Made by a program: the position numbers and the translations under genes
Shown: positions 8,530-30,577 of the stretch, one piece after another
How positions within the stretch are numbered: position 1 is the stretch's first letter
How the letters are laid out: every line of letters begins with the position of its first letter
Assembly (NCBI GenBank): GCA_023229865.1
Contig: JALNYL010000005.1
Span: 4,422 to 68,421, forward strand
Length of the DNA: 64,000 bases
Source: Minisyncoccota bacterium
GTDB taxonomy: Bacteria; Patescibacteriota; Minisyncoccia; Phycocordibacterales; UBA1550
Direction of reading: 5' to 3'
Notes under the pieces: generated by a model
What the model was told of the DNA's origin: nothing
What the model saw: only the letters and a program-made list of their open reading frames with translations
The model's database searches: none

Positions 8530-9417
8530 GTGAAAACTATGAGCGAAACAGCAAAAAAGACTATTCTTGTGACAGGTGGTGCGGGGTTCATTGGGTCGCA
8601 CCTTATTGAAAAACTCGTACAAGATGAAGATAATATTGTTGTTTCTTTGGATAATTATTTTACGGGGTCTAAAGATAATCATATTGCTGGGGCGACATAC
8701 ATAGAAGGACACACAAAAGATATTGCGAAATTAATTGATTTTGCGCCGGACCTTGTTTTTCATCTTGGTGAATATTCTCGTGTGGAACAAAGCTTCGACG
8801 ATTTACAAATAGTTTGGGAGTCGAATAAAAATGGCACATTTGCGGTGCTTGAGTTTTGTCGAAAACACAACACAAAGATTGTTTATGCTGGTTCGAGTAC
8901 AAAGTTTGGTGATGGAGGTCTCGGGAGAGATCAGAGCCCTTACGCGTGGACAAAGGCAACAAACACCGAACTCGTTCGAAATTACGGGACCTGGTTCGGC
9001 ATCAAATATGCAATAACTTATTTTTATAACGTATATGGACCACGTGAAATTTCTACGGGTCCTTACGCAACCCTTATTGCGATTTTTAAAAATAAATTTA
9101 AGAACAATGAACCACTCACTATTGTTGCCCCAGGTACGCAGGTCCGCAACTTTACACACGTTGATGATATTGTGCGTGGGCTTATTTTGATCGGCGAAAA
9201 AGGGGAAGGTGATGACTATGGCCTTGGTGCTGAAGAGGGGTATAGTATTCTTAATATCGCTAAAATATTCGGCGGAGAGGTTGCAATGCTCCCTGAAAGA
9301 AAGGGGAACAGAATGGGGGCGCCTGTTGATTCCGCTCGTCCTAGAAATGAGCTTGGCTGGTGCGCAGAAAAGAGGATTGAGGATCACATCAAAGAATTTG
9401 TTAAAAACAATTCTTAA
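8530..9417 (+). CDS. NAD-dependent sugar epimerase/dehydratase family protein (UDP-sugar epimerase/decarboxylase-like)
   Basis: TGGAGFIGSH Rossmann motif, YxxxK-type SDR extended family; start GTG 8530 or ATG 8539. Confidence 0.8.
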   Translation: MKTMSETAKKTILVTGGAGFIGSHLIEKLVQDEDNIVVSLDNYFTGSKDNHIAGATYIEGHTKDIAKLIDFAPDLVFHLGEYSRVEQSFDDLQIVWESNKNGTFAVLEFCRKHNTKIVYAGSSTKFGDGGLGRDQSPYAWTKATNTELVRNYGTWFGIKYAITYFYNVYGPREISTGPYATLIAIFKNKFKNNEPLTIVAPGTQVRNFTHVDDIVRGLILIGEKGEGDDYGLGAEEGYSILNIAKIFGGEVAMLPERKGNRMGAPVDSARPRNELGWCAEKRIEDHIKEFVKNNS

Positions 9418-10657
9418 TTATCCCCCTAACCTCTTCGCTGTATTTTTTTTCTGAAAAATTTTCTTTTGCAAAAAGATGAGCCGCAGTTCTCATGTTTTGC
9501 CACTGTTCGATGTTGGTCTTTTTTAATGCGATGAATTCGTTCATGTACGATGCGTAGGTGTCAACGTCGTCTTTATTTGTGATACGCGCAAAGTCTGGAG
9601 ACAGATATTCGGTGTGTGCATTCCAAATGTGTGATCGATGGGAAATGATCGGATTCCCTGCGTGCATTGACTCAGCGATATTGAGGCCAAACGTTTCTCC
9701 GTCGTTTCTAAAATGTGCTAGGCAGTCCAGTGAGTAGTGGAATCCCCAAATGTCCAGTTCATTGCTGCTTGGTGGTATGAAATGTACATTTTTAATGCTC
9801 TCGTCGCGAACTATTTTTTCTAACAGGGGAGGGGGCGACATTATTATGTAATGTGCTTGCGGGTTCTCTTTTGAAATTTTCTGAAAAGCCCTGATTCCAA
9901 TGGGGTCAAAGATGCTATCTGCGTTTCTCCCGATCCTGCCAAACACGAAATCATCTTTGGAGATTCCAAATTCGTCTCTAATTTGTTGCCCGCGGTTCTT
10001 CTCGTTTTGGTGGTCAGACAAAACCTGTACAGGGATAAAAAGAGATCTGTTGCCCGATTGTTTCCCTGTGTATGCTTCAGCGTGTCGCTGTACTTCGTTC
10101 GAAATAAAAATATTCGCAACTATGTTTTTTTGCAGTGTAGGCGAACCAAAGATATTTATCATTATTATGGGAACACGAGAAATCGTGTTGATGGGGTACT
10201 GGGTATAACCACTGTCCGCAGTAGTGACAAGGTCAATATTGTGTTCCGTTATGACATTTTTTATATGAGGGTTCATCCCCTTGATATAAAAAGGATATGC
10301 CGATTCCTTCGCTGTGTAATCAAATTCTATACAGTGCACTCTTTTGTCGATATAGTTTATACGACTATTTGCTACATTTTTGTTCGAATATAAAAAAAAG
10401 ACATCATAGTCGTCGCAGAGGCTATTTGCTAGACTTTGGAGGTTTTTTTCGGTTCCGCCAAAACTCAACCCAGAAATATGATAGAGAAGTATCTTTTTTT
10501 TAAGGTTCAGTGTGTTTGACGTGCTTTTTTTGAGTTGGTATTCTCTTGCTTCTTTTATTGATGAGATATATTTAAAATATGCCTCGTATGAGCGTACGAC
10601 CCACTTTTTTGCAAAGAGAGGGAGTTTGGTTATTATTTTTTTAATTACGCCTCTCAT
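9401..10657 (-). CDS. glycosyltransferase family 1 (GT4-like)
   Basis: 418 aa; GT-B fold features (FGRIGRN..., HFIPPSS, E-x7-E-like C-terminal region); AT-rich. Confidence 0.75.
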   Translation of the reverse strand: MRGVIKKIITKLPLFAKKWVVRSYEAYFKYISSIKEAREYQLKKSTSNTLNLKKKILLYHISGLSFGGTEKNLQSLANSLCDDYDVFFLYSNKNVANSRINYIDKRVHCIEFDYTAKESAYPFYIKGMNPHIKNVITEHNIDLVTTADSGYTQYPINTISRVPIIMINIFGSPTLQKNIVANIFISNEVQRHAEAYTGKQSGNRSLFIPVQVLSDHQNEKNRGQQIRDEFGISKDDFVFGRIGRNADSIFDPIGIRAFQKISKENPQAHYIIMSPPPLLEKIVRDESIKNVHFIPPSSNELDIWGFHYSLDCLAHFRNDGETFGLNIAESMHAGNPIISHRSHIWNAHTEYLSPDFARITNKDDVDTYASYMNEFIALKKTNIEQWQNMRTAAHLFAKENFSEKKYSEEVRGIIKNCF

Positions 10658-10659
10658 GT

Positions 10660-11400
10660 TTATTTGAATTGTAAATATGTCGCCATTTTCTTTATCGCCC
10701 TTTCAATAACGTTGAAGAGCCAACTGAGCTTCCAGCCAAGATTTGTTACGCTCCCTGTCTTGTGGTTTGGTAGAACGTCTTGCTCGCCGACGCATACTCC
10801 AAAAATCCCGCTCGGATATCCTCCGATCTCAATATTGCAGAAAAATAATTGCCAGTTGGGAAGATTTTTAATCCACCAGTCTTTATTTCGCACGTGCCAC
10901 ATGTTCCAGCTTGTGTTTTTGTCGTACCGTTCATCGAAGAATAACGTTGAATTCGTGGGGAGGTTATTTACGTATGACAAAAACTCCTCTACGTAGTAAT
11001 TTTCAATATGATTCAAGACTGTTGCCGTTGTTATGAATACAGGAGCTTTGATATCTAGCTGTTGTAGCCCATCAATCATATCTGCATTAATAAAGGAGAC
11101 ATTCGTGTTTTCTTCGTTGATCCTTGTTGCTACTTTTGTGATGGCTGTTGACGGCTCTATCCCGATGGATTTTTTAAAGAATCGAGAACTTTTTCGCACG
11201 AGCCATCCGTTCCCAGAACCAATATCAATATGGGTTTCTGGTAGGGGATTGGACATTCTTATTGCGAGTTCAAAACCTAGCGTTTTAAATAGATTGCACT
11301 GATCGTACTTTTTGATGAGTTGAATGTTGTTTTCGTAACTGTTCGTCTCTTCAAGATATTCAGAGTTATGCTTTTCGTAGCTTTGTAAGTCTTTTTTCAT
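10660..11400 (-). CDS. class I SAM-dependent methyltransferase
   Basis: DIGSGNG motif I; 246 aa. Confidence 0.75.
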   Translation of the reverse strand: MKKDLQSYEKHNSEYLEETNSYENNIQLIKKYDQCNLFKTLGFELAIRMSNPLPETHIDIGSGNGWLVRKSSRFFKKSIGIEPSTAITKVATRINEENTNVSFINADMIDGLQQLDIKAPVFITTATVLNHIENYYVEEFLSYVNNLPTNSTLFFDERYDKNTSWNMWHVRNKDWWIKNLPNWQLFFCNIEIGGYPSGIFGVCVGEQDVLPNHKTGSVTNLGWKLSWLFNVIERAIKKMATYLQFK

Positions 11401-11405
11401 AAAAT

Positions 11406-12362
11406 TTATTGAATTATACTATTTTTTACCTTATTCTTTAAGTCGTTTAAGAAGAGTAGCCAGTCGGGGAATACCCTTGCTTCTGGTCCTCTGCCTACTT
11501 TTCTCACAAACATCTCTCTCAATTCTGGTATATCCCAAATATCGAGTGATTCAAAAAATACGATGTTTTTTTGCTCAAAAAGAGTGCTAATCTGTTGTAT
11601 GTAAAAATCATAATCCGCGTCTGTTCGAATGTCTTTAAAATTGGAAAGCGTAAATTCATCCTTGAGCAGTTCTTTGTTGCGTGCCACAGATTCTTTTGAG
11701 TGGCGGTATGTGGCGTTGATCCTTCTTGCGGAGCGGCTACCCTCGACTAGCTCGCTACAGCGGTACCAGGCTTGTTTCAGCTGATTTCTTTTTTGTGCAA
11801 TCTTTTGAAAGTGAAGCACGTACCCTGTTTCAAAGGAATGGTATGTTTTAAGCGTATGATCTCCCGGGGTTCGTTCTTCTGAGAGAAACTGCTTTTTGTA
11901 GGTGCTTGTTCCGTCGTCGGAAAAAATAAAATCTTTATAGATCGACCTATCGGTTGAATTAAAGCAAAGTTCTCCGTTGTCTTGCCTTATCAAAACCCAT
12001 GGCAAAAACAATGTCGCCCCTTTATCCATCGAGCTCACCGTTTCTTTGAGTTTTTTTGAAAACTCGCCCGAGAATGTTTCGTCAGCATCAAGAAAAACGA
12101 AATGGGTACCATTAGACCTTCGCCCCTCTTGTAAAAGGATGTTTCTGCGGAGCGACATATCAACATGACGCTCTGTCGTTTCGAAGGGGACGACGCGCAC
12201 CTTGGGGTATTCTTGCGCTATTTCAAGCAGGTCATCTGTTGAATGGTCGTCCAAAATGATTATTTCATCTGAAAAAAGAGAGAAATTCTTAAGAGAAAAT
12301 CGTAAGATCCAACCTTCGTTTTTTACGGGGACAAGAGTGATTATTTTCATATTATTGAACAT
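11406..12362 (-). CDS. glycosyltransferase family 2
   Basis: IILDDHSTDD and FLDADE (DXD) motifs. Confidence 0.8.
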   Translation of the reverse strand: MFNNMKIITLVPVKNEGWILRFSLKNFSLFSDEIIILDDHSTDDLLEIAQEYPKVRVVPFETTERHVDMSLRRNILLQEGRRSNGTHFVFLDADETFSGEFSKKLKETVSSMDKGATLFLPWVLIRQDNGELCFNSTDRSIYKDFIFSDDGTSTYKKQFLSEERTPGDHTLKTYHSFETGYVLHFQKIAQKRNQLKQAWYRCSELVEGSRSARRINATYRHSKESVARNKELLKDEFTLSNFKDIRTDADYDFYIQQISTLFEQKNIVFFESLDIWDIPELREMFVRKVGRGPEARVFPDWLLFLNDLKNKVKNSIIQ

Positions 12363-13047
12363 TACGTATGATGGTATCGTTCTCTTTTTTTTGTAGGTCG
12401 TTTTTTGAACCGCTTAATGTTTTTCCGTCGTTGTTGAAAACACCTGAAAGGGTCTTTGTCTTTATTATCCTCACGTTTTTTTGTGCCGCGCGCGACCACC
12501 AGTCAAAGTCACCAGAGATCTTGAACGATTCATTGAATTCCCCGACGATACTAAATGTCTCCTTGGTGAACATAAAATGCGGACCTGCGTACATACCAAC
12601 TTTGAAAAGTTCGCGATCGTACTCAGCCGGATCAACGACCTTTATCATTGCAAGGATCTTGATGCCCCATACATAGATATATCTTTTATAGATGTACGGG
12701 AAATAAGTCGCTTGGAATCCCTTGCTAAGATTCGCGCTTCCTTCGATGAATGCTTTCGTAAAACGCAGGTCATCCACAGCCCAGAAGGTGATGTATTCAT
12801 AGAGACTTTCTTTGGTGCCCCTGTTCCAACTTGCATAAAGAGTTTCTCTGGGGACGGTGATAATTTTAAAGTTGAGGCCGGAGTTTCCTACGAGCATCCT
12901 TTCTTGATTTGAAAAATCGTTTGCGACCAAAATGTGTTCAAATTGGATATTTTGTTTTGCTAATCCATGATGAACCTTCTGGGCGCTTTTAAGGAACGCT
13001 GGAAGGTGTGTTTCTGATTTATACAAAGACGTGACGATGGAGATCAT
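12352..13047 (-). CDS. glycosyltransferase family 2-like
   Basis: N-terminal ISIVTSLYK, WAVDD DXD-like motif; 231 aa. Confidence 0.6.
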   Translation of the reverse strand: MISIVTSLYKSETHLPAFLKSAQKVHHGLAKQNIQFEHILVANDFSNQERMLVGNSGLNFKIITVPRETLYASWNRGTKESLYEYITFWAVDDLRFTKAFIEGSANLSKGFQATYFPYIYKRYIYVWGIKILAMIKVVDPAEYDRELFKVGMYAGPHFMFTKETFSIVGEFNESFKISGDFDWWSRAAQKNVRIIKTKTLSGVFNNDGKTLSGSKNDLQKKENDTIIRNVQ

Positions 13048-13053
13048 GTTGAA

Positions 13054-14265
13054 TTAAATAAGTTTTTTGATTTCGTTAATCACTGCTTCGGTGCTTATGT
13101 TACTCACACAGGGGGCAGGGCTCCCTGTGGTAAGTCCATTTGCGCAGGCGTAGGCGTCGTTGAGGCAGTCCATGTTTTTTACTGAAACAACGATGTTCTT
13201 TTCCGTATCTTGGGACGGGTAAAATTCTTTGAAATGACCAAGTCCTAATGGGCAAATCACGGTTGCTCCCACGGCCTCGGCTAAATGCGTCGGGCCGCTG
13301 TCGTTCCCAATATAAAATTTTGCCAATCGTATTATGCCCGCAGTGGAAAAGATGTTCGTTTTTGCTGTTAGGTTAAAGATGTGATCCATCTTGCTTTTGT
13401 CGACATGTTGTAGGATTCCCTCCGCTAAGTTTTTTTCCATTGCGGAGCCACAAATAACGACATCGAAATTGTGTTCAACGAGATGCTCTGCAATTTTTGC
13501 AAATTTGTCGACTGGCCATTTTGAAACAGCTCTTCCTGCGCCAGGGAAGATGACGACAAATGCTCCTTGGGCAATCCCGTATTCGGACAGTATCTTTCGA
13601 GCGCCAGCAATGTCACTGTCTTTTGAGGGGAAGGTTGTTGAGTAGTCGTCAAATGTTTTTCCCGCTAATTCTTCAATAAGATGTTTGTGTCGATAAAATT
13701 CATTTGAAATAGTTGTAGGGGTGCGTATCAACTTTGTGTACGGGTCCAAGAGAAAAATCCGACCTAGTTTTTCAACTTCATATCCCGCAAAAGATATTTT
13801 TTCTGTAGCTTGTGTTGCTCTTACGATAAAGTCGCTGATTTTTCTTCTGTAATATATTGGATTTATTACGGTATCAAAATTCATTTGGTAAAATTTCTTA
13901 GACAGAGCAAATCTGTAGAAAATATTTTTCGAGAATTTTTTTGCGTCAAAGAGAATGACATTGTCGACATTTTCTCCTTTGTATCGGTTGGCAATTTCGT
14001 AGTTGATTTTATTATCAACGAGAAGAGATATTTCATAACCAGGAAAGACTTCTCGGTATTTTAGTAATGACGGGAGGAAAATAATGAAATCGCCCAGCCC
14101 TTCAAGCTTGATAAGAAGTAATTTTTTCTTGGTATTTTGGTCTCTTCTTGTGAAGGGCAAAGTGGCCATTATCAAATTATTTACCAGTGTTCGGAAAAGA
14201 TTTATTGCAGAGTTCATGTTGTTGCGAGTGGGGAAGTGGTTGTTGATTAAAGCAAAGTATATCAT
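13054..14265 (-). CDS. glycosyltransferase family 9 (ADP-heptose:LPS heptosyltransferase-like)
   Basis: KLEGLGDFIIFLPSL and GNDSGPTHLAEAVGATVI motifs typical of GT9; alternative start at 14217. Confidence 0.75.
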   Translation of the reverse strand: MIYFALINNHFPTRNNMNSAINLFRTLVNNLIMATLPFTRRDQNTKKKLLLIKLEGLGDFIIFLPSLLKYREVFPGYEISLLVDNKINYEIANRYKGENVDNVILFDAKKFSKNIFYRFALSKKFYQMNFDTVINPIYYRRKISDFIVRATQATEKISFAGYEVEKLGRIFLLDPYTKLIRTPTTISNEFYRHKHLIEELAGKTFDDYSTTFPSKDSDIAGARKILSEYGIAQGAFVVIFPGAGRAVSKWPVDKFAKIAEHLVEHNFDVVICGSAMEKNLAEGILQHVDKSKMDHIFNLTAKTNIFSTAGIIRLAKFYIGNDSGPTHLAEAVGATVICPLGLGHFKEFYPSQDTEKNIVVSVKNMDCLNDAYACANGLTTGSPAPCVSNISTEAVINEIKKLI

Positions 14266-14373
14266 TTCTTGTTGTGCGGGAACAACTTAATCCCGCAACG
14301 CCGCAGCCCTGTACAAGAGCGTTAATATGTAGTATATTTGCGGGAGTTGTACTTTACCAATGAGGAGAAAAAA

Positions 14374-16215
14374 ATGAATGCACCCCAGCAGAGAATTCGG
14401 GTTTTGTTGGTTGCTCGATATTACATCATTGAGCCCCTCGGAATCCTCCATTTGATAGGGCTTGCTGATTCGATTGGTTGTGAAGTTGATGTGGAGCTTG
14501 TCCCCGGGAATGACTTTTCTGCTCTTTACAAAAAGGTAGAAGAGTGGAAACCGGATTTTGTTGGTTTCCAAATTTGGACAGGGTGGCATCTCCAGATTTT
14601 TGCGGCTTGTGATCATGTCCGCAACATGGGGACAAAGGTGATTGTCGGTGGCCCTCACGTCACGTACTTCACCCACGAATGTGCCAAGCATGCTGATTTT
14701 GTTGTTCGCGGTGACGGTTTCCGTAATTTCAGGCGCATCTTGCAGGGAGAACTTCTCCCTGGTATACATTTTGACGTCGAACAGCTGGCGGAGTCGTTCC
14801 CTATGCCTAATCGCAGTATCGTGTACAACAAGTACCCCGCATTACGCAATAGCCCCATTCGTAGCATAATTACATCTGTTGGTTGTCCCTTTACGTGTAG
14901 TTATTGCTACGCACCAGAATGGAACAGGATGTATGGTGGTTTCAGACACCGACAACGTTCGGTGGATGACATCATTCGCGAAGGGGTTGAAATCAGTACC
15001 AAGTGGGGAGCGGAGATGGTCTACATTCAAGATGACATCTTTGGCTTTGATAAGGTTTGGCTTGCTGATTTTGCAAAACGATGGAAGGAAGAAGTTAACC
15101 TTCCGTTTCATTGCCAAATCCGATTGGAGCTTACTCGTCATACTGCCGGAGATGAGAGGTTGGACCTCTTCAAACAGGCGGGGTGTACTGGTATTACGCT
15201 TGCTATTGAGTCAGGTGATCCGTTTCTAAGGGAGCATGTTCTTCACCGCGAAATGTCAGACGAACTTATTCTTGAGGGGTGTGCGAAGATTCGCTCCCGA
15301 GGGATGACGCTTCGTACAGAGCAGATTCTTGCGGTCCCCTTTAGTAATCTGGATACAGATCTTTCGACTCTACACCTTAACAACCTTGTTGCACCAGAAA
15401 TGGCTTGGACTTCGATCTTGGTGCCATATAGTGGCACTGAATTGGGTGGAATTGCCAATGCCTTTGGTTATTACAAAGGAGAAAACGACGATATTAAGGA
15501 GGTGTTTTTCGACAGAAGTGTCATGCGACATTCAAAAACCGCAAAGGGTGTCGTGGAAAAAGTTGTCGGTGAAATGGTTAGAGTGAATAAAACCATGGAG
15601 AAGGCACAGCAATATCGGGGTTCCCCCTTGCAACGCCTCGAAGCACGAGAGGTAGCACCGTTTGTCTCGGAAGTTTTTATTCGTGATGGACAAGGCTCGT
15701 CTTTCCCGGTGCTCCCGTCTCGCCAAAAGCCGCTCTGCACCATTGAGTTTTTGAACGATGAGGAGAACGATCGATATTCCAATCAAATCGTCATTCTTCA
15801 AAGGCTCTTTATGTGGTTTGCCGCTGTCCCAGAAGCACGCGAACTCGCCAAGAGATATATATCACTTGAGCAGGAAGAGTGGACGTGGGTGCGCCTTGGC
15901 GAGGTCGTCATGGAGCACTTCAAACTGCTCGGAAAGGAGCAAGACGCAGAAAGGTGGATAAATGAACTCGTTCAGGCATTCAGCTGTGATTCTCGAGATG
16001 AATTGCCAAGCGTTGTGAAGGATAATCCACTCTACTTCGTTTTCTTTCCTTCGAGCGCTGATTTTGCTAAGCATGTTGTTGCACTAAATGTAATCAACAT
16101 GAAGGCAGAGCCAGGACGTCAGTTTGACGAGCTCGGTGGGGTGGCGCGTAGATGGTTGTTTGATACTGCTCTTTATAAAATTGTTCCCGCAACAAAACCA
16201 ATTGCTTGCGATTGA
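14374..16215 (+). CDS. B12-binding domain radical SAM protein (class B radical SAM, putative C-methyltransferase)
   Basis: N-terminal cobalamin-binding Rossmann-like region, then CPFTCSYC CxxxCxxC radical SAM cluster motif; GGAG SD upstream. Confidence 0.8.
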   Translation: MNAPQQRIRVLLVARYYIIEPLGILHLIGLADSIGCEVDVELVPGNDFSALYKKVEEWKPDFVGFQIWTGWHLQIFAACDHVRNMGTKVIVGGPHVTYFTHECAKHADFVVRGDGFRNFRRILQGELLPGIHFDVEQLAESFPMPNRSIVYNKYPALRNSPIRSIITSVGCPFTCSYCYAPEWNRMYGGFRHRQRSVDDIIREGVEISTKWGAEMVYIQDDIFGFDKVWLADFAKRWKEEVNLPFHCQIRLELTRHTAGDERLDLFKQAGCTGITLAIESGDPFLREHVLHREMSDELILEGCAKIRSRGMTLRTEQILAVPFSNLDTDLSTLHLNNLVAPEMAWTSILVPYSGTELGGIANAFGYYKGENDDIKEVFFDRSVMRHSKTAKGVVEKVVGEMVRVNKTMEKAQQYRGSPLQRLEAREVAPFVSEVFIRDGQGSSFPVLPSRQKPLCTIEFLNDEENDRYSNQIVILQRLFMWFAAVPEARELAKRYISLEQEEWTWVRLGEVVMEHFKLLGKEQDAERWINELVQAFSCDSRDELPSVVKDNPLYFVFFPSSADFAKHVVALNVINMKAEPGRQFDELGGVARRWLFDTALYKIVPATKPIACD

Positions 16216-16257
16216 TGTTATGGGGAAACGCCGCTGAGTTATTTCAGCGGCGTTTTT

Positions 16258-16992
16258 TTATTTGATTATTTTCCTTAATATAACTTCGATTTGAAGCTTG
16301 GGAGCAAAGACAAGGATTTTAAATAACCAATTATTGATCTTTTTGTTCGTTATTATGTGGATGTTTTTTCCGTCAGTGTAAAAATGTAATCCAAATTTCG
16401 AGGCAAGGTTTCGAAGGGATTGTTCTGAATAAAAGGCGACGTGCTGTCCATGGTGAAATCCATAATAACCCCAAGCGTCAGGGTCGGGGATCTCATTGGG
16501 GGGAATGAGTTTTGTTGAAAAAAGGATGGTATTGGATATGGATAATATCTTTTTAATTTCCTCTACAGGGGCAGGAAAGTGTTCAAAACATTCAAAACAT
16601 GTGACTGCTTTTATTTCTTCATTATGGTATTCAAGTCCAGTTGCGAAAATACCCTCGGTGTATTGGTCCATCCAGTAGAATTTTAGACCATAGTCGTTCA
16701 TGAGTCGCGCAAACAATCCGTACCCACCTGCATAGTCGAGAAATTTATCTTTCGCGCTAAACAAGGTATAAAAAATTACCAGGGTGATTCTCGACATGAG
16801 GATGTTTCTGCCGACATACCCCGTATCTGATTTGTTGATCGAATTTTTGTATGCTTCGTCGAGCCAGTAAGGAGTCTCTGTTTGTATGAAGTGACAGTTT
16901 TTGCAGTGAAAATAATCGACATCATACTTTTCGAGTACTCTTTTTGTGAAAATTTTTTCTACTTCTTTGCCGCAAATGTTACATGTTTTCAT
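16258..16992 (-). CDS. SAM-dependent methyltransferase with N-terminal zinc ribbon (sugar C-methyltransferase-like)
   Basis: CNICGK...HCKNCHF zinc ribbon followed by MTase-fold region (LDYAGGYG). Confidence 0.6.
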   Translation of the reverse strand: MKTCNICGKEVEKIFTKRVLEKYDVDYFHCKNCHFIQTETPYWLDEAYKNSINKSDTGYVGRNILMSRITLVIFYTLFSAKDKFLDYAGGYGLFARLMNDYGLKFYWMDQYTEGIFATGLEYHNEEIKAVTCFECFEHFPAPVEEIKKILSISNTILFSTKLIPPNEIPDPDAWGYYGFHHGQHVAFYSEQSLRNLASKFGLHFYTDGKNIHIITNKKINNWLFKILVFAPKLQIEVILRKIIK

Positions 16993-17545
16993 GATGGGGA
17001 ATCATTTTTATTAATTTTGCAGGATTTCCGCCTACAATTGCATAATCTGGAACATTTTGCGTCACAACACTACCAGCTGCAACCACACTGTGTTTGCCGA
17101 TGGTTACCCCACCAAGAACGATTGCTCGAGTGCCAATCCAGGCACCTTCTTTGATGTGTATTGGTTTTTCAGTGATGCTTGCGTGGCGTTCTTCATTGAA
17201 GAAATTATAATCATGCCCTCGTGCAAGTAAGCACACTCCATGTCCAAAAAAAACATAATCATCGATAGTGATTTTGCCAACATTATTCCCTGCGTTGATG
17301 AGTGTGTCAACCAAGGAGATATGCGAACCAAGATATATATTGTGGTGCCCGCTAAATACTCGGAATCCTTTTTCAATATACACCTGAGAACCTTTGTGGG
17401 GGATCATCTTGAAGTGTTGTCTTTCTGAGATGCGATCCCTCTTTCTTATGATGATTTCAGTGTAATCCATGCCGTAATACCAGCCCCTAACAAAACGTGC
17501 TACGGACTTGATTTGCTTTTTTATTTCGTTTAGATATGCTTTCAT
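16979..17545 (-). CDS. hexapeptide-repeat (left-handed beta-helix) sugar O-acetyltransferase
   Basis: AWIGTRAIVLGGVTIGKHSVVAAGSVV hexapeptide repeats. Confidence 0.8.
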   Translation of the reverse strand: MKAYLNEIKKQIKSVARFVRGWYYGMDYTEIIIRKRDRISERQHFKMIPHKGSQVYIEKGFRVFSGHHNIYLGSHISLVDTLINAGNNVGKITIDDYVFFGHGVCLLARGHDYNFFNEERHASITEKPIHIKEGAWIGTRAIVLGGVTIGKHSVVAAGSVVTQNVPDYAIVGGNPAKLIKMIPHHENM

Positions 17546-17551
17546 TTTTTT

Positions 17552-18514
17552 TTAAATTTTTAATTTTAATTTTCTGTAAATGAGTCTTGTGAATTTACGT
17601 AATTTTAGCATATCTAGTATTTGTATGAGGAGTATTCGATAGTTAAAATTATCAACAAATGTATCTTTGAGAAGTGCGTACTCAATTTCGATATTAGGCG
17701 TCATCTCTCGTGGGTGCTTGAGGTTCTCGACAGAAATGAATTCCGTGTGCATGTTGTTGAAGGGAGATGCGGAGATGCTGTGCGTCCCGCTAATTCCGAT
17801 GTTGCTTACCAAGTTTCTTGGGGGGATAATGCAGAGCATGTTATTCGCAAGGCAAGAAAAAAACCACTGAACATCCCACGTGTTGATGCGTTTACTGTAG
17901 CCGAATTCAAACGAGTCGTTATAAAATGACGACACGTTTTTACTGCTAAATATTTTCTGAAGGCGGTGTTGTTTTTTAAAATTAGGCCAACTCTTCATTT
18001 CTATATCATATTTACTCCAAGCTCTCCTCCAAGTGGCCCAGCCCCATATGTAGATTGGTCGCACAAAATAGTATTCGTCTTTGTTTGGATTGATTTTCAC
18101 GAGAGTTTTTTCTTGCACAAAATTGTCTCCTGATATCATCCCCACGTGTTCGTTATCCTGATATTTTTTTAACATCGTTTCGCAAAAAGCAAAAAAAGAA
18201 GGATGGGGAAGGCAGTCGTCCTCTAAAATGATCCCTTGTTCGACGTTTTCAAAAAACCAAGTAATCGAGGAGCTGACAGCATTTTTGCAGCCCAGGTTTT
18301 TTTTCTCGGAACAATGTTTTAACCTCGCATTCCCAGTCGATATTTTTCACGATGCTTTTTGTTTCAGCACAAAGGACCTGATCGCCCGGGACATTATCTC
18401 GGGGGCCATCTGACGCGATAAAAAGCTGCTTTGGTCTTGCTTTTCGAATTTCTTCAAAGACTTTTGCCGTAGTGTCTGGCCTGTTGAATATCAAGAGAAG
18501 GATGGGGGTATCCA
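17552..18514 (-). pseudogene. glycosyltransferase (nucleotide-diphospho-sugar transferase fold) disrupted by a +1 frameshift in a T6/A6 homopolymer
   Basis: ORFs 18249..18608 and 17552..18175 are one reading frame interrupted at plus-strand aaaaaa 18251-18256; removing one base gives continuous ...QLLDYLVFENVEQGIILEDDCLPHPSFF... Confidence 0.65.
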
Positions 18515-18591
18515 TAATATAATTAGTGTGTCCTTGAATTATAGCATTTTTTGAAGACCATGCCTTTTGTTTTGTGCTATTATTGATTTTG

Positions 18592-19509
18592 ATGATTTCT
18601 TTCAGCAAACTAGGGAATTATGGGAGGTTGGGGAACCAGCTTTTCCAATATGCTTTTCTGAGAACTCAAGCAGAAAGACTTGGGGTGAAATTTTATTGTC
18701 CGACATGGGAGGGGGATAGTATATTCAACTTAGGGGACGAAGGCGCGCGTTGCGCCGAATTTGTTCCACGTACATACTACGAAGATCATTCCAATGGTTA
18801 CAACCTTGATGCCACTCAAATCCAAGATGGTACTGATATTGCAGGTTTCTTTCAGTCTGATAAATATTTTAAAAAGGGGGATGTGCATCGCTGGTTTTCA
18901 TTTAATGAATCATTGTTTGTCGCCGTTAACAAAAAATATTCGGACATAAATTTTTCAGAAAGTACTGGATTGCACGTACGTCTCGGAGACTATACGACAC
19001 CCCAGCTTGTTTTCTATGTTCCAAGACCAGAATTTTATAAAAAAGCACTCGAGCTGGTTGATCACAAAAGAAGTATCCTGGTTTTTTCTGACGATGTTGT
19101 TTTTGCAAAAAAATACTTAAAGGGGATTCCCGGGAACTTCGTTTATATGGAGAAGAACAAGGGCTATGAGGATCTATACTTGATGTCTAAATGCAGAGAT
19201 GTGGTAATTTCCTCCTCGAGTTTCAGTTGGTGGGCGGCGTTCCTGAATACCTATTCAGATAAAAAGGTTGTCATGCCCGCTTCTTGGTTTTTACCAGGAG
19301 GGAAGACTGCTAATAATGATATATTTGTTGAGGGTTGGATTCGACTGAGGGCGCACCGGTTTTACGATTATTACTATATCAAGTATCTTCCTAATATAAT
19401 CAGGGTATACAGTGGAAGAATATCTAAAAGCATCGATCTATTAAGAAGGGATGGGGTTGTGTCCGCGATGAATGAAATTAAAAAATTTGTTCTCAAAAGA
19501 CAACGATAG
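18592..19509 (+). CDS. glycosyltransferase family 11 (alpha-1,2-fucosyltransferase)
   Basis: GRLGNQLFQYA and HVRLGDY motifs. Confidence 0.8.
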   Translation: MISFSKLGNYGRLGNQLFQYAFLRTQAERLGVKFYCPTWEGDSIFNLGDEGARCAEFVPRTYYEDHSNGYNLDATQIQDGTDIAGFFQSDKYFKKGDVHRWFSFNESLFVAVNKKYSDINFSESTGLHVRLGDYTTPQLVFYVPRPEFYKKALELVDHKRSILVFSDDVVFAKKYLKGIPGNFVYMEKNKGYEDLYLMSKCRDVVISSSSFSWWAAFLNTYSDKKVVMPASWFLPGGKTANNDIFVEGWIRLRAHRFYDYYYIKYLPNIIRVYSGRISKSIDLLRRDGVVSAMNEIKKFVLKRQR

Positions 19510-19518
19510 TCTAGTCTT

Positions 19519-20295
19519 TTATTTTTTAATGAACCAGAAGCAGCCACAAGCGTCGTTCTGCTTGTCTGATTCTTCTTTTGTTGCGTTCCTGATTATACCA
19601 ACCTCTCTGGCGTTGTCGGGAATCAAAGAAAACTCCTCTAGGTGAAGATCTGAAAAATATTTCATAATTTGAGCGTATGAATATTGTCGGTGAGCGTTAA
19701 AGATGATTTTTGGATCACCGCCGATAGGCACGACGAACAATAAGCTTCCGCCAGGAGCGAGTACTCTTTTGAGTTCTTGTATTGCTTTTAAATCTCCTTG
19801 CGGATCAACGGGGTCTCCGTATCGGCCTAGTCCTACATGTTCTACTGTGTGCATGCAAGAAAGTGACATTATTGAGTTGTCTTGAAACGGCATTGAAAGC
19901 AGGTCGCCACTTTTTGTCTCGAGATTGTCTAGTTTTATATCTGCGGGGCGGTAGTCATAAAATTTTATGGGAATAAAAGCAGAGATAAGCGTGCTGAACG
20001 GGAGAAACGAAGAGAAGTCAACATGATACTCTGGCTTTGTTTTTGCAAGAATTCTTGCTGCCCATGCCGGGTGGTAGGTATAGTGTGGTTCGATTTTTGT
20101 TACTGTTGTTCTGTCGAGTAGTTGAGGGGCCATCGAAGATATTTTGAGAGGGAATCGCCCGTCATTGTTTTTTGAAAATTTATACAGATCAAGAACAAAA
20201 TAAACAAAGTTAATCAGTTTTTTTATTTTGATATAGAAAAAAACCGAAAAAGGGATCGCGATAATGATTTTTTTTGTTCTATTACTTATGTTCAT
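19519..20295 (-). CDS. methyltransferase-like protein (DUF268-type, class I MTase fold)
   Basis: SCMHTVEHVGLGRYGD...LAPGGSLLFVVP; paralog of 22505..23254. Confidence 0.6.
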   Translation of the reverse strand: MNISNRTKKIIIAIPFSVFFYIKIKKLINFVYFVLDLYKFSKNNDGRFPLKISSMAPQLLDRTTVTKIEPHYTYHPAWAARILAKTKPEYHVDFSSFLPFSTLISAFIPIKFYDYRPADIKLDNLETKSGDLLSMPFQDNSIMSLSCMHTVEHVGLGRYGDPVDPQGDLKAIQELKRVLAPGGSLLFVVPIGGDPKIIFNAHRQYSYAQIMKYFSDLHLEEFSLIPDNAREVGIIRNATKEESDKQNDACGCFWFIKK

Positions 20296-21558
20296 TTATT
20301 TATTGATGACCTTGTAGTCTAATATCGATGCCATGACACCAAGATTTTGTCCGTTATAGGCTGCGGTTTTTGGATTATTGATATCTTGAATTTCGAAGCC
20401 GATGTATTGTCGTATGTCGAGTCTTTCAACAAAAACCTTGTCTACGGTTACGTCAAAATGGTAATGACCAACATTGAATAAAAATTTTGGTACAGACACA
20501 ATTACCTCGTAATCACCCTTCTTGAAATCGGATAATTTTTCCGCCTGATCAGAGATTGATGAAATAAGAACCACTTCCCCCTGATAAGAGAATTGCAAGG
20601 TGATGATTACTCCAGTAACGTCGTTATTCACCTCTAGGTTTAACTTTATCGAGAAGTCTTCGCTTATGGGGATGCGCGCTGCTGGAGTATTGTTTTTGTT
20701 GAGAATCGTTATTTTGGATACTTGTACGTCTTTCCCATGGTTGGTGTTAAATTCGCTGACAGCATTCAACCCCTTGGTGTCATTAAGGTAGTGGTCAACC
20801 ACCTTGTCTGTTGTGTCAAACATCACAATGTTTCCTTTTTCAAGAAGGATGCTTTTGTTGCAAAGTTGCTGTATCGCGTTTATATTGTGGCTCACAAAGA
20901 GAATTGTGCGACCCTTCTTTTCAGTGATATCCTGCATTTTCCCCATGCACTTTTTTTGAAATTCTGCGTCTCCAACAGCAAGCACTTCATCAACAATAAG
21001 AATATCTGGCTCCATGTGTGCTGCGACGGAAAACGCAAGTCGAACATACATACCAGAAGAGTAGTATTTTACGGGCGTATCCAAAAACTTTTCGATCTCT
21101 GCAAAGGCAACGATCTCGTCAAATTTACGCGCGATCTCACTTCGTTTCATTCCCAAAATTGCGCCGTTGAGAAAAATGTTTTCTCTGCCTGTTAATTCTG
21201 GATGAAATCCTGTCCCAACTTCAAGGAGTGATCCCACTGTCCCGCGAATCTTTATTTCTCCTGTTGTTGGTGGTGTAATTTGGGAAAGAATTTTAAGCAA
21301 GGTTGATTTTCCTGCGCCGTTTCTTCCAATAATACCGACAACTTCCCCTTTTTTAATAGTAAGATTGAGGTCTTTTAATGCCCAAAAGTCCTCCTGTTTT
21401 TCAAGTCCAGCGACTTGCTTGATTTTGTACTTCAAAAATTTGAAGGGGGCTTTGAGAACCCCTGCGAGAACGTCGCGCAATGCAACATACCGCCCACGTT
21501 CATGTGTGATTTTGTATTTTTTCCCAATGTTCTTTATTTCGATGATAGTGTCGGTCAT
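20296..21558 (-). CDS. wzt: polysaccharide ABC exporter ATP-binding protein Wzt with C-terminal glycan-binding extension
   Basis: GRNGAGKSTLLKIL Walker A, LSGG-like signature, Walker B ILIVDE; ~170-aa C-terminal beta-rich extension beyond the NBD. Confidence 0.9.
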   Translation of the reverse strand: MTDTIIEIKNIGKKYKITHERGRYVALRDVLAGVLKAPFKFLKYKIKQVAGLEKQEDFWALKDLNLTIKKGEVVGIIGRNGAGKSTLLKILSQITPPTTGEIKIRGTVGSLLEVGTGFHPELTGRENIFLNGAILGMKRSEIARKFDEIVAFAEIEKFLDTPVKYYSSGMYVRLAFSVAAHMEPDILIVDEVLAVGDAEFQKKCMGKMQDITEKKGRTILFVSHNINAIQQLCNKSILLEKGNIVMFDTTDKVVDHYLNDTKGLNAVSEFNTNHGKDVQVSKITILNKNNTPAARIPISEDFSIKLNLEVNNDVTGVIITLQFSYQGEVVLISSISDQAEKLSDFKKGDYEVIVSVPKFLFNVGHYHFDVTVDKVFVERLDIRQYIGFEIQDINNPKTAAYNGQNLGVMASILDYKVINK

Positions 21559-21564
21559 GTTGTG

Positions 21565-22428
21565 TTATATGGTGTCGGCGAAATGGCGCTCTGCCTTCTT
21601 GAAGTTTACAATACCAACAATAAGAATGATCGCACATACGATGAATGATATTGAGATGAGGAGCCAGTTGATGGGTGTGGTTCCAAGAAGTGCCGCGCGA
21701 GCGTTCTGGATTACCCCCGTCATGGGGTTGATTGCAAGTATCCATGAATACTTTTCGGCAACGCTTGCGGGGTAGATGACAGGGGTCACGAAAAGCAAGA
21801 TTTGAATAAAGAACGGTAAGACGTATCTAACGTCGCGATACTTTACATTGATTGCAGCGAGAATGAGTCCCCCTCCCACCGATATCATGAATGTGATGAC
21901 GAGAAGTAGGGGGAAGACGAGGATCCCAACAAGATTCGGCGTGTACCCATAATAGAGCATCATCCCGAAAAGAATCATCGCTGCGATAGTAAAGTCGACG
22001 AATTTTGTCATTACTGAAGAGAAGGGGAGAATAAGTCTCGGAAAGTAAACTTTGGTAACTATCGCTTGGTTGGCGATGAGTACATTACTGGTGTCAGCAA
22101 GAGATGATGAAAAAAACTGCCAAAATATCAAGCCGGTATAAACAAAGATTGGGTAGGGAACTCCGTTTGAAGGAACCTTAAGAAGAATACCGAAAAAGAT
22201 GCTAAAAATTACCATCGTGACGAACGGCTGGAATACTGCCCACATAATCCCAATGTATGTTTGTTTGTATCGAACCTTAATGTCTCTCCATGTAAAAAAA
22301 TAAAGAAGTTCACGATACTGCCACACCTCGCGCAGGTCGTCAAAGCTGAATACTTTTTTGGGCTTTATGATTGTTAGATTACTCATGTGGTACTTTGCAA
22401 TGGTAGCATTTTGCGAGCTTAATTTCAA
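21565..22428 (-). CDS. wzm: ABC-2 type polysaccharide exporter permease Wzm
   Basis: 287 aa, 6 predicted TM helices, ABC-2 family character. Confidence 0.85.
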   Translation of the reverse strand: MKLSSQNATIAKYHMSNLTIIKPKKVFSFDDLREVWQYRELLYFFTWRDIKVRYKQTYIGIMWAVFQPFVTMVIFSIFFGILLKVPSNGVPYPIFVYTGLIFWQFFSSSLADTSNVLIANQAIVTKVYFPRLILPFSSVMTKFVDFTIAAMILFGMMLYYGYTPNLVGILVFPLLLVITFMISVGGGLILAAINVKYRDVRYVLPFFIQILLFVTPVIYPASVAEKYSWILAINPMTGVIQNARAALLGTTPINWLLISISFIVCAIILIVGIVNFKKAERHFADTI

Positions 22429-22504
22429 AAGACCAAAATATAGGCCTATTTCACGGTGTTTTTCTTGATAACATTTGATTGCGTTGGTGTGTTATAATTC
22501 ACCT

Positions 22505-23254
22505 ATGTTCAATTTTTTACGCACCATAAAGAGGTATTTTTTTAGAGTAAGATCATACGCGCTTTTCCCATTCGTTGCGAGTAGTTTTTTTGCCTTTAAG
22601 GCAAAGGATAAGCAGCACAGATTCAGCACTTCGTTTTTCGATGTGTTCCCGTGTCTTTTTGAAAACATTCCTTACACAAGATTTGATACCCACTATATTT
22701 ATCACACGGGATGGGCTGCACGAAAGGTTGAGGAAATAGGAGCAAAGGAGCACGTTGATATTTCTTCCAGTTTGTATTTTTCTAGTATCGTGTCGGCTTT
22801 CAAACCGGTTCGCTTTTATGATTTTCGCCCTGCTAAATTGAATTTATCGAATTTAATTTCAAGTCCGGCAAATCTTTTGAACTTGCCATTTGAAACAAAC
22901 TCGATAGATTCTCTTTCTTGTATGCACACAGTAGAACACGTTGGGTTGGGGAGGTATGGAGACGATATTGAACCAGATGGGGACTTGCGCGCCGCGCAAG
23001 AATTGTCTCGTGTTGTCAGGTCTGGGGGAAGTTTGCTTTTTGTTGTTCCTGTTGGTAAACCAAGGATTCAGTTTAATGCCCATCGCGTGTATTCATATGA
23101 TATGGTCGTCACCATGTTCCCTGACCTTACTCTTAAGGAGTTCTCTCTCATCCCTGATGACGCCCTGGAAACTGGTATGATATACAATGCGACAAAAGAA
23201 ATCGCTGACGCACAGGTGTATGGATGTGGATGTTTTTTGTTTACCAAAAAGTAG
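22505..23254 (+). CDS. methyltransferase-like protein (DUF268-type), paralog of 19519..20295
   Basis: near-identical motif block SCMHTVEHVGLGRYGDDIEPDGDL...SGGSLLFVVP; TTG at 22475 alternative start. Confidence 0.6.
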   Translation: MFNFLRTIKRYFFRVRSYALFPFVASSFFAFKAKDKQHRFSTSFFDVFPCLFENIPYTRFDTHYIYHTGWAARKVEEIGAKEHVDISSSLYFSSIVSAFKPVRFYDFRPAKLNLSNLISSPANLLNLPFETNSIDSLSCMHTVEHVGLGRYGDDIEPDGDLRAAQELSRVVRSGGSLLFVVPVGKPRIQFNAHRVYSYDMVVTMFPDLTLKEFSLIPDDALETGMIYNATKEIADAQVYGCGCFLFTKK

Positions 23255-23260
23255 CTTCAT

Positions 23261-24115
23261 ATGATTATAATAAAATTACAAGGAGGTCTTGGAAATCAAC
23301 TTTTTCAGTATGCGCTCGGGAAGACAATCGAAAAAACATACAACAAAGAGGTTGCATACGACATCTCTTCGTTTGAAGGGGATAAAAAAGTGACTCCCCG
23401 GTCGTTTCTTCTGGATAAATTCAAGACTAAATTAAAAATAGCGAATAATGTCGAGATCCGTGAGGTAAAAGAATCACTTTTATATCTTGCAAAAAAGATT
23501 TTGAACAAATTCTTTTTTAAAAAATACCATATTGCTTATGAAGCAGATTTCTTGGATTCGATCAAAGATTCGGACTCCATGTATTTGGAGGGATATTGGC
23601 AGAGCGTTCGTTATGTAGAGCCGTGTATTATTGATTTGAGGGAGGAAATTGTCTTGGTTGATGGTTCGAATGAGCGGCTTGAGGGGGCGGTAGGGGGCGC
23701 CATGCAAGGTGAGTCAGTTGCGGTACATGTCCGAAGAGGGGACTATGTGACTGCGGGGACTGATCTAAGTGTTCTTGATATTTCGTATTATAAAATGGCA
23801 AAAGAATTTCTTTGTGAAAAGTTAAAGAACCCTCATTTTTATGTTTTTACCGATGATGCTATGTGGGTGAAGGAACAGTTTACTTTTTTACCCAAAGGAA
23901 ATACCACCTATGTTTCTGAGCTTGGATTGCGGGACTATGAGGAACTCATTTTGATGACAACGTGCAAAAATGCAGTCATTGCGAACTCGTCGTTCTCTTG
24001 GTGGGGAGCTATGTTGCGTAACGAAAAGGGGCTTACTCTCTGTCCAAAAGACTGGAAGAATGCATTTCTTAAAAACGATGAAAATCTGTGCCCAGATGAC
24101 TGGATCAGAATCTAG
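23261..24115 (+). CDS. glycosyltransferase family 11 (alpha-1,2-fucosyltransferase), second copy
   Basis: GGLGNQLFQYA and HVRRGDY motifs. Confidence 0.8.
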   Translation: MIIIKLQGGLGNQLFQYALGKTIEKTYNKEVAYDISSFEGDKKVTPRSFLLDKFKTKLKIANNVEIREVKESLLYLAKKILNKFFFKKYHIAYEADFLDSIKDSDSMYLEGYWQSVRYVEPCIIDLREEIVLVDGSNERLEGAVGGAMQGESVAVHVRRGDYVTAGTDLSVLDISYYKMAKEFLCEKLKNPHFYVFTDDAMWVKEQFTFLPKGNTTYVSELGLRDYEELILMTTCKNAVIANSSFSWWGAMLRNEKGLTLCPKDWKNAFLKNDENLCPDDWIRI

Positions 24116-24119
24116 TAGC

Positions 24120-24890
24120 TCATCCTTTAATGCTAAGGCGGACAAAACGCAAGAGTAGATATATGCAAAATGTCGGATGATAGAGGAGGTGAAGATTGAA
24201 TCCTTCTTGTGCAATTAAGGATAGCATCTCAAGTTGTTTTTTACGCGGGCGAGTGCGGAAATTGAGGCCAGAAGCTTCGTCGTACCCGTCGGTGAGAGTG
24301 CTGTTGTGGGGAGAATAGAACATGTGTGTTTTGAGTCCGATTTGAAAAAAGAAGATCCACTCTTCCGCCTGCTTGATGCGTGTCGAAAATCGCACGTTCG
24401 TAACGATTTTTGCGTTTATACAGTGCGTCGCATCACCTTCACCTTTTTTAGTAATGAGATAGTCCCATGCGTAAGAATATGTGGTGTCGGGCTTTGGAAA
24501 TTTTGTTGCTGACTTACCGCTTGCGTATGCGCGGTTTGTAACAAACCATGTTTCCTTTGGGTGTGCCAAGATAAGGTCGTGAAGTGTTGCGAGTGCGTCT
24601 GGGGTGAGGTAGTCGTCATCATCTAAAAAGATGACCCAGTCCGAATCCCTTACGGCAATATCAAGTGCTCGGTTGCGGGAGAAATTTACTCCTGAGTTTT
24701 CCTCGTTTTTCAAATAGGTGATACGACGGTCGGCGATATCTTGTTCAAGGGGTGCATAGCTTATGTCTTCAGGGGAGTCGTTGACGATGATCATTCTCCA
24801 TTCGGCATAGGTCTGCCCAAGAACCGACTCGATTGCGCGAGTAAGCTTGTCGGCGCGTTTGTGGGTAGGGGTGATGATGGTGAATCTCAT
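24120..24890 (-). CDS. glycosyltransferase family 2
   Basis: FTIITPTHKR..., FLDDDD DXD motif; start chosen at MRFTIITP. Confidence 0.75.
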   Translation of the reverse strand: MRFTIITPTHKRADKLTRAIESVLGQTYAEWRMIIVNDSPEDISYAPLEQDIADRRITYLKNEENSGVNFSRNRALDIAVRDSDWVIFLDDDDYLTPDALATLHDLILAHPKETWFVTNRAYASGKSATKFPKPDTTYSYAWDYLITKKGEGDATHCINAKIVTNVRFSTRIKQAEEWIFFFQIGLKTHMFYSPHNSTLTDGYDEASGLNFRTRPRKKQLEMLSLIAQEGFNLHLLYHPTFCIYLLLRFVRLSIKG

Positions 24891-24901
24891 GATTGGGAAG
24901 T

Positions 24902-25810: not shown

Positions 25811-25814
25811 AGTT

Positions 25815-26513: not shown

Positions 26514-26556
26514 GATGTTCGTAAGTTTTAGTATACCATCAACACACTGAGATCCA

Positions 26557-27486: not shown

Positions 27487-27494
27487 GTTATAAA

Positions 27495-27947
27495 TTATTT
27501 AGATTTTGTAAAACCTGCCAAAACAAGAAACTTTTTCACATAAGGATGCCAGGTGTCGTCAATATGAGTATACCATTGATATTCTTCATTTTGTGTATCA
27601 AGAGCTACGGTGTCGCCATCGTCTTTAGAATTAGCGAGAAAGACAACGTTTATTGTATGTGTGGAGTCATCAAATGGACCGTCGGGGAACATCGTTTCGT
27701 CTACGCCAAGGATCTTTTCAATACTTATTTCAATTCCCAATTCCTCCTGCGCCTTTCTTTTTGCTGCATCTTCGAGCCCCTCACCCTTAAATATTCTTCC
27801 TCCTGGGAAAAACCATTGCCCCTGAGCGGGCTTGTTGTTTCGTTTTGCGAGTAAGAAGGAATTATCCCTCACGACAACAACATCGACGCAGACAATAGGG
27901 AGGACTGCGTGAATCTTTTGGTAGAGTTCGGTGGGGATGTGATTCAT
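27495..27947 (-). CDS. gmm: GDP-mannose mannosyl hydrolase-like Nudix protein
   Basis: Nudix box [25 protein letters not shown]; location between gmd and fcl. Confidence 0.75.
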
Positions 27948-27963
27948 TTAGGGGCGTCTAACT

Positions 27964-30557: not shown

Positions 30558-30577
30558 ACATTTCTAAATTTAACGGA

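Follow-up and report, generated by a model that had tools for sequence, protein, structure and literature searches.

A class-B-type radical SAM gene linked to GT9 glycosyltransferase and ADP-heptose genes in Patescibacteria and DPANN archaea: a candidate heptose-tailoring enzyme

Class-B radical S-adenosylmethionine (SAM) enzymes form a very large group in which function is known for a minority. One of them, HpnJ, is believed to rearrange a head group that derives from a sugar (glucosamine), and ring contraction or carbocycle formation, proposed for HpnJ, has been demonstrated for OxsB. On the glycan side, GT9 enzymes are heptosyltransferases, and the steps otherwise known to us in heptose metabolism are those of isomerases, kinases, phosphatases, nucleotidyltransferases, epimerases and dehydratases. 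Non-methylating members of class B include OxsB, BchE, HpnJ and ThnL (PMC12931638). Our literature search yielded a single radical SAM enzyme with a heptose as substrate, AbmJ (PMC9978623), and no paper that ties class-B radical SAM enzymes to GT9 or to ADP-heptose. Here we describe a gene of class-B architecture in a 64-kb stretch of contig JALNYL010000005.1 from a Minisyncoccota bacterium; the whole stretch, 64,000 nucleotides, is called the window. The original prediction, made from the letters of the window, was of a B12-binding radical SAM enzyme lying in a surface-glycan cluster. From the conserved neighbourhood of its relatives, we consider it probable that this class-B-type enzyme tailors a heptose-containing glycan together with a GT9 glycosyltransferase.

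The protein, 613 codons long from ATG 14374 to a stop codon at 16213–16215 as read from the open reading frame (ORF) and its translation, is a radical SAM enzyme with a B12-type N-terminal domain. The Pfam search proposed with the original prediction found both domains above cut-off: PF02310 (B12-binding) over residues 9–116 with 43.1 bits (cut-off 32.1), and PF04055 (Radical_SAM) over residues 165–325 with 56.8 bits (cut-off 29.5). The protein thus has the CxxxCxxC motif, the PF04055 match above gathering score and the partial TIM-barrel fold of the radical SAM superfamily, and also the Rossmann domain N-terminal to the radical SAM core that marks the class-B architecture. An AlphaFold2 (AF2) model, with a predicted local distance difference test score (pLDDT) of 93.5, gave the partial TIM barrel and the Rossmann fold with confidence. 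In an alignment of 56 homologues, whose mean column identity was 55% and in which each of the three regions of the protein had many invariant residues, the cluster motif C171-P-F-T-C175-S-Y-C178 was invariant, as it was in the clade and outgroup sequences. Three loops of the N-domain were conserved in the same alignment: E20-P-L-G23, W68-T69-G70-x-H72 and G92-G93-P94-H95-x-T97. Residues ~400–613 gave no Pfam match, leaving a C-terminal domain of ~220 amino acids without a known fold. We rejected the idea of an auxiliary Fe-S cluster, there being no second conserved cysteine motif that spans the clade.

A search of 5.8 billion proteins returned 308 matches, the best 120 of which ranged from 75% down to ~46% identity, most of them covered end to end. 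Most of the family's ~300 sequence clusters come from Patescibacteria, and relatives occur in DPANN archaea; among the sources given by name are Kaiserbacteria, Jorgensenbacteria, Paceibacterota, Stellaceae and Pyrinomonadaceae. The enzyme had been thought unusual for a cobalamin auxotroph, a view that this distribution contradicts, since the gene is a regular feature of such organisms. A genome scan gave 80 loci, which were grouped by phmmer score into a core group (> 500 bits), an extended group (219–357 bits) and other class-B proteins (<= 201 bits). The core group held members from Patescibacteria, Polyangiales, Acidobacteriota and Stellaceae, and the extended group members from Woesearchaeota, Nanoarchaeota, Archaeon GW2011_AR15, Methanosarcinales, Nitrospirae, Deltaproteobacteria, Verrucomicrobiota, Lentisphaerae and Nealsonbacteria. 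A barrel signature of the clade, QDD(I/V)F-G, H(C/A)Q(I/M)R(L/W)E and RTEQ(I/M), was present in the window protein (as Q219-D-D221, H246-x-Q-x-R-x-E252 and R314-T-E-Q317) and in the majority of the core and extended groups, a few members carrying single substitutions, and was missing from 10 other class-B proteins. The loops EPLG, TG.H and GGPH.T, by comparison, were common to the core, extended and other class-B groups. The polar barrel residues QDD, HxQxRxE and RTEQ would suit a sugar, phosphate or nucleotide substrate.

No curated NCBIfam model was reached by the window protein, the best scores being those for HpnJ (63.9 bits, cut-off 577.6), AprD4 (58.3, cut-off 500), TIGR04013 (54.7, cut-off 251) and PhpK (51.6, cut-off 600); matches below cut-off included ladderane-lipid families and families of ribosomally synthesized and post-translationally modified peptides (RiPPs). 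Placement with the hopanoid or bacteriochlorophyll enzymes, the case raised beforehand against a role in sugar tailoring, did not occur, HpnJ scoring 64 against 578 and BchE 34 against 481. Class-B proteins from other loci gave 115–131 bits on HpnJ, about twice the score of the window protein, about twice its score on BchE as well, and 67–83 bits on AprD4. Because generic class-B proteins outscore the window protein on all three models, we take the clade to be an outlying lineage and no relative of any one of these families, and a specific kinship with AprD4 was rejected on the same grounds. The protein belongs to a distinct, apparently deep-branching clade of class-B architecture with an active-site signature of its own.

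The neighbours of the radical SAM genes were clustered without bias as to family. GT9 partners, mostly missed by plain tblastn with the window GT9, were found by iterated hidden Markov model searches. GT9 was the most tightly linked neighbour family, at a median distance of 73 bp, against 3.6 kb for the short-chain dehydrogenase/reductase (SDR) genes. Of 30 clade loci, 18 had a GT9 gene no more than 3 kb away (12 of them within 150 bp), as did 1 of 55 other class-B loci (Fisher p 1e-9); when 31 clade loci were counted, the figures were 19 within 3 kb and 13 of those within 150 bp. Four further contexts also had a GT9 nearby, at ~100 bp or less in three and at ~2.6 kb in one. The gene run FkbM methyltransferase-GT9-radical SAM occurred in three contexts, and the same genes lay close by in two more.

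Because GT9 enzymes are heptosyltransferases, the loci were searched for heptose genes with GmhA, GmhB, HldE and HldD of E. coli K-12 as queries, and matches were confirmed with NCBIfam. The most complete set was that of Archaeon GW2011_AR15, in which the order was gmhB/rfaE-II, rfaE-I, hldD, gmhA, radical SAM, GT9; the gmhA, hldE, gmhB and hldD genes beside the radical SAM-GT9 pair are all complete, with hldD at 276.7 bits (cut-off 274.6) and gmhA at 218.2 bits (cut-off 209.45). A bifunctional hldE (504.5 bits) lay directly upstream of the radical SAM gene in Polyangiales, and hldE lay directly downstream of it in a Woesearchaeote. The Kaiserbacteria homologue, 73% identical to the window protein, was followed directly by rfaE-II, gmhB and rfaE-I. 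Taken together, GT9 and/or heptose genes were present at 20 of 31 clade loci and at 3 of 55 other class-B loci (p 5e-9). The linkage turns up repeatedly in both bacterial and archaeal phyla, and the genes are often on the same strand and < 100 bp apart. The original prediction's link to a sugar pathway therefore holds, narrowed by the conserved neighbourhood to GT9 and heptose.

In two of the three exceptions among the other class-B loci, the heptose genes adjoin the radical SAM gene itself. Two class-B genes that fall below the clade threshold likewise adjoin heptose genes, one from Saccharibacteria (L039, 75–3947; a 451-amino-acid protein with gmhA, hldE and gmhB directly adjacent) and the other from Woesearchaeota (L084, 9203–11203; a 437-amino-acid protein with an hldE domain directly adjacent); both proteins have no long C-terminal domain. 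The heptose link may reach past the clade as drawn.

How such an enzyme might act can be outlined from the known cofactor logic. The [4Fe-4S] cluster would reductively cleave SAM to a 5'-deoxyadenosyl radical, which would take a hydrogen from an unactivated heptose carbon, the substrate being either ADP-heptose before transfer or a heptosyl residue placed by the neighbouring GT9. The N-terminal domain would carry scavenged cobalamin, and the likeliest single outcome would be the transfer of a methyl group from methylcobalamin to give a C-methylated heptose. The conventional O-methyltransferases that often accompany the pair (FkbM type, Methyltransf_23) would decorate the same residue, and in the window the product would form part of a Wzm/Wzt-exported, fucose-containing, heavily methylated polysaccharide. 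Cobalamin-dependent C-methylation is favoured as the single reaction because the N-domain is B12-like, and we favour it tentatively, as a suggestion that falls somewhat short of probable. The wider proposal, that the clade alters the carbon skeleton of ADP-heptose or of a GT9-installed heptosyl residue in a cobalamin-dependent manner, by C-methylation to an eight-carbon sugar or by radical rearrangement, we regard as possible and distinctly doubtful. The original prediction had the enzyme making a C-methylated or rearranged sugar in the manner of GenK, Fom3 or GenD1; its sugar pathway stands, and its C-methylation is reduced to one option, given that no methylase model was reached and that the closest solved structure, AprD4, is cobalamin-free.

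The evidence for cobalamin comes from the N-domain. Searched against PDB sequences, a profile of the whole family matched nothing beyond the barrel of AprD4 and the N-domain of TM0182. A profile of the N-domain by itself matched TokK (E 6e-7), a B12-dependent mutase (4e-5), corrinoid proteins (~1e-3) and OxsB (6e-3), and AprD4 stayed unmatched with E values of up to 10 allowed. In this alignment the TokK loop bearing Trp76, the residue under the corrin on its lower-axial side (PMC12931638), falls on the family's invariant W68-T69-G70-x-H72 loop. A functional cobalamin site in the N-domain thus has moderate support. No cobalamin riboswitch was found in the 64-kb window with Rfam. A TP_methylase match at 1904–2590 is probably an RsmI-type rRNA methylase rather than a corrin enzyme.

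Several points weigh against a cobalamin-dependent enzyme working on heptose. Cobalamin binding by the protein is a prediction, and class-B-like domains that carry no cobalamin exist in AprD4 and ArsL (PMC12931638); since AprD4 does not bind cobalamin, a B12-domain label is no proof of its use. The class-B methylase models were not reached, the scores and cut-offs being 51.6 and 600 bits for PhpK, 29.4 and 700 for KedN5, 31.6 and 650 for HpnR, 22.2 and 500 for the TsrM-type Trp methylase, 19.8 and 360 for QCMT, and 27.5 and 450 for BzaD. No cobalamin transport or remodelling gene was found among the window ORFs scanned with Pfam (most ORFs > ~150 amino acids). The 64-kb window contains none of gmhA, hldE and gmhB, and the heptose donor is here assumed. 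The clade loci are not phylogenetically independent, and the Fisher p-values overstate the significance of the linkage. About a third of the clade loci have neither GT9 nor heptose genes. At the alphaproteobacterial Stellaceae locus (L002/L003, 8612–11815), where the member is 49% identical, no glycosyltransferase is near; the gene is preceded by those for an oxidoreductase of the GFO/IDH/MocA type and a transporter of the MFS type, a hint that the role of this member differs and may be catabolic or concern free sugars.

The Stellaceae locus and some Patescibacteria loci without GT9 and heptose genes are what one would cite in favour of a non-sugar substrate, such as a lipid anchor, a peptide or a cofactor, with the position in a glycan locus due to shared regulation or chance; many class-B enzymes do act on lipids or peptides, as the NCBIfam matches to ladderane-lipid and RiPP families recall. 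We think this very unlikely, given that the GT9/ADP-heptose linkage recurs over so wide a range of phyla, and that neighbour clustering showed no gene for a precursor peptide, for a carrier protein or for lipid synthesis to be consistently near.

The N-domain results bear also on a cobalamin-independent dehydratase of the AprD4 type. Such an enzyme would abstract a hydrogen beside a vicinal diol (for example the exocyclic C6-C7 diol of a heptose or a ring diol) and lose water to give a keto or aldehyde sugar, which a nearby SDR reductase would then turn into a deoxy-heptose, the N-terminal Rossmann domain being structural only. This we consider unlikely. The likeness to AprD4 is generic, with unrelated class-B proteins scoring 67–83 bits to the 58 of the window protein on a model whose cut-off is 500; the cluster cysteines are spaced CX3CX3C in AprD4 and in the canonical CX3CX2C here; TokK, mutases and corrinoid proteins come up with the N-domain profile and AprD4 does not; the residues of the Rossmann loops are invariant family-wide; and the SDR genes, as noted, are loosely linked in comparison with GT9.

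A third possibility is that cobalamin is used for radical chemistry on heptose other than methylation, for instance for ring contraction or carbocycle formation, for epimerisation, or for forming a C-C bond to a higher-carbon sugar. The top NCBIfam match is HpnJ, non-methylating class-B enzymes are known, as listed at the outset, the clade is remote from all methylase models, and its C-terminal domain is novel. On the other side, the HpnJ score lies far under its cut-off of 578 and is about doubled by unrelated class-B proteins, hopanoid genes are lacking, and the loci point to no particular rearrangement. We therefore hold such chemistry to be improbable as the explanation, and retain tailoring of a heptose-containing glycan, tentatively by C-methylation, as the preferred reading.

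In sum, the fold and the cofactor logic are known, and the novelty lies in the C-terminal domain, in the signature of the active site and in the heptose/GT9 partnership. The clade offers a testable guess at the substrate (heptose), a conserved partner (GT9) and a new C-terminal domain. If the proposal is true, it adds a radical step to heptose metabolism and gives insight into the poorly known glycans in the envelopes of symbiotic bacteria and archaea of ultra-small size, and into a possible reliance of these glycans on borrowed vitamin B12. If in addition the carbon skeleton is altered, the product would be a monosaccharide not yet described, and the surface glycan of many Patescibacteria and DPANN archaea would rely on cobamide scavenged from hosts or community.

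The features of the gene and its locus are collected in Table 1. The longest ORF at the locus runs from 14338 to 16215; the ATG at 14374 was preferred as the start because the GAGGAG sequence precedes it and because homologue alignments open at about residue 6 of the version that starts there. The gene looks monocistronic, since a hairpin of 19 pairs and a T-run follow directly on its stop codon. The original prediction described the gene as divergently transcribed from the GT9 operon, and this was borne out: the spacer between GT9 and the ATG is 108 bp (73 bp to the longest ORF call) and has promoter-like sites on both strands, which are weak evidence, being no more numerous than in shuffled sequence.

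Table 1. Positions in the window of the radical SAM gene, its signals and domains, and the surrounding locus
Feature	Position	Strand	Evidence
Radical SAM gene, class-B architecture, 613 amino acids	14374..16215	+	ORF/translation, Pfam, homologues, AF2 model
Ribosome-binding site GAGGAG, 3' end 6 nt ahead of ATG	14362..14367	+	read directly in sequence
Promoter-like site in 108-bp divergent spacer	14310..14338	+	consensus scan
Second promoter-like site, toward GT9 operon	14360-14331	-	consensus scan
Terminator-like hairpin, 19 pairs, then T-run, directly 3' of radical SAM stop	16220..16261	+	
B12-binding-type Rossmann domain, residues 9-116	14398..14721	+	PF02310 43.1 bits, invariant columns, N-domain profile
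Radical SAM core, residues 165-325	14866..15348	+	PF04055; clade-specific barrel residues
CxxxCxxC motif, putative [4Fe-4S] cluster ligands C171, C175, C178	14884..14907	+	translation, alignments
Family-specific C-terminal domain, residues ~390-613	15541..16212	+	beta-hairpin + helical bundle, conserved aromatic residues
GT9 (heptosyltransferase-like) glycosyltransferase, first gene of divergent operon	13054..14265	-	PF01075 78.7 bits
Low-GC polysaccharide locus	8530..33310	.	Wzm/Wzt export, GDP-fucose genes, many methyltransferases, Wzy_C/TPR ligase-like gene

The gene does lie in a surface-glycan cluster, as had been predicted, with glycosyltransferases, wzm and wzt, GDP-fucose genes and a Wzy_C/TPR protein. 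The window GT9 scored 79 bits on the heptosyltransferase III model, below the cut-off of 170. It is followed in the divergent operon by a GT2-like gene, a GT2, a methyltransferase and a GT4. On the other side of the radical SAM gene are a Methyltransf_23 gene, a hexapeptide acyltransferase, two GT11 fucosyltransferase-like genes, two DUF268 methyltransferases, wzt (with a Wzt_C domain), wzm, a GT2 and an FkbM-type methyltransferase. Genes for the route from GDP-mannose to GDP-fucose are present; the locus has fcl (509.9 bits, above cut-off), gmd, manC, a phosphomannomutase-like gene and a nudix hydrolase, and at least six methyltransferase genes in all.

Some further observations concern the export genes. 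Within 18574–24115, wzt and wzm are bracketed on both sides by a pair of genes, a GT11 fucosyltransferase-like gene and a DUF268 methyltransferase gene; the two DUF268 proteins are 52% identical to each other and the two GT11 proteins 28%, which suggests an old duplication of a module to fucosylate and methylate. Wzt (20296–21558, minus strand) has a C-terminal carbohydrate-binding domain, PF14524, that scores exactly at cut-off. In other bacteria this C-terminal domain recognises a chain-terminating modification, and the methyltransferases of the locus could be supplying a chain cap for Wzt. The ORFs at 17552–18175 and 18249–18608, both on the minus strand, are halves of one gene with a frameshift near 18291–18304, and the pair is a pseudogene or an assembly error; both halves match one protein of 299 amino acids without Pfam domains in locus L087 (4084–4983), where its gene adjoins the radical SAM gene.

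The base composition of the radical SAM gene had also been remarked on. The gene is indeed richer in guanine and cytosine (GC) than its neighbours (47.4% against 37–43%), and this is little informative, as its GC content equals that of the window backbone (~47–50%). By codon position the values are 0.575 (GC1), 0.379 (GC2) and 0.469 (GC3); because the excess is mostly at positions 1 and 2, we read it as an effect of protein composition and not of transfer, and a foreign origin was rejected on this ground and for the backbone-like value. The surrounding low-GC block (~8500–36750) has ~40% GC, against ~48% elsewhere in the window. Backbone-like GC inside this island is found in the radical SAM gene, the GT2 at 24120–24932, gmd and the Wzy_C/TPR gene. 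Near the right end of the island, between the Wzy_C/TPR gene and murB (35731–36750), are an IS200-like Y1 transposase (34070–34744) and small ORFs.

The rest of the window fits the description of a small-genome bacterium. SecA (37411–39873) is 82–93% identical to the SecA proteins of Candidatus Yonathbacteria, Paceibacterota and Patescibacteria metagenome-assembled genomes (MAGs), one of these relatives being on a 784-kb contig. Housekeeping functions account for the other window genes, one of them a split transketolase, and in their midst at 4263–6224 (plus strand) is a gene like those for type IV secretion coupling proteins (TrwB/TraG-D_C/HerA domains). An ORF of 595 amino acids at 55907–57694 (plus strand), of unusual composition (21% glycine; GC2 0.61) and without a Pfam match, has a hydrophobic segment at the N-terminal end, long stretches of GGxGG and a C-terminus rich in cysteine, and looks like a secreted or surface protein. 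Across the 64-kb window no tRNA gene was present, and no Rfam family reached gathering score. Elsewhere in the genome scan, tandem arrays of 4–7 class-B paralogues with no tie to this clade were seen at L085 (9854–20964) and at L059, L030, L033 and L034; in one of them, from a Gastranaerophilales MAG, seven paralogues stand in a row.

Among known systems, the best solved match in both sequence and fold is AprD4, the radical SAM 1,2-diol dehydratase of apramycin (PDB 6fd2; NCBIfam NF033070). The two share an N-terminal Rossmann-type domain and a radical SAM partial TIM barrel, and the substrate of AprD4 is a carbohydrate. The differences are many: identity is only 19%, with 58.3 bits against the cut-off of 500; the AprD4 cluster motif is CPYPCRFYC, against CPFTCSYC in the window protein; AprD4 has no C-terminal domain of 220 amino acids, does not bind cobalamin (PMC12931638), and is encoded in an aminoglycoside gene cluster and not beside GT9 or heptose genes. 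Another related group is that of the class-B methyltransferases (TokK, QCMT/MgmA, CysS and TsrM, with GenK, GenD1 and Fom3 as the examples from sugar or phosphonate pathways); against the curated methylase models and the 10 class-B proteins compared, the window family stands apart in its scores, its barrel residues and its C-terminal domain. HpnJ (TIGR03471), the hopanoid-associated class-B enzyme, is the best NCBIfam match of the window protein, with the difference that the score is far below cut-off and that the alignment covers the barrel only (residues 151–399); Pfam scans found no hopanoid genes in the window. The remaining comparison is with AbmJ, the radical SAM heptofuranose C3 epimerase of albomycin, which we take to be without a B12-type domain. 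Likened here by its description, AbmJ is likewise a radical SAM enzyme acting on a heptose (PMC9978623), and its pathway leads to a nucleoside antibiotic, not to a cell-surface glycan with GT9.

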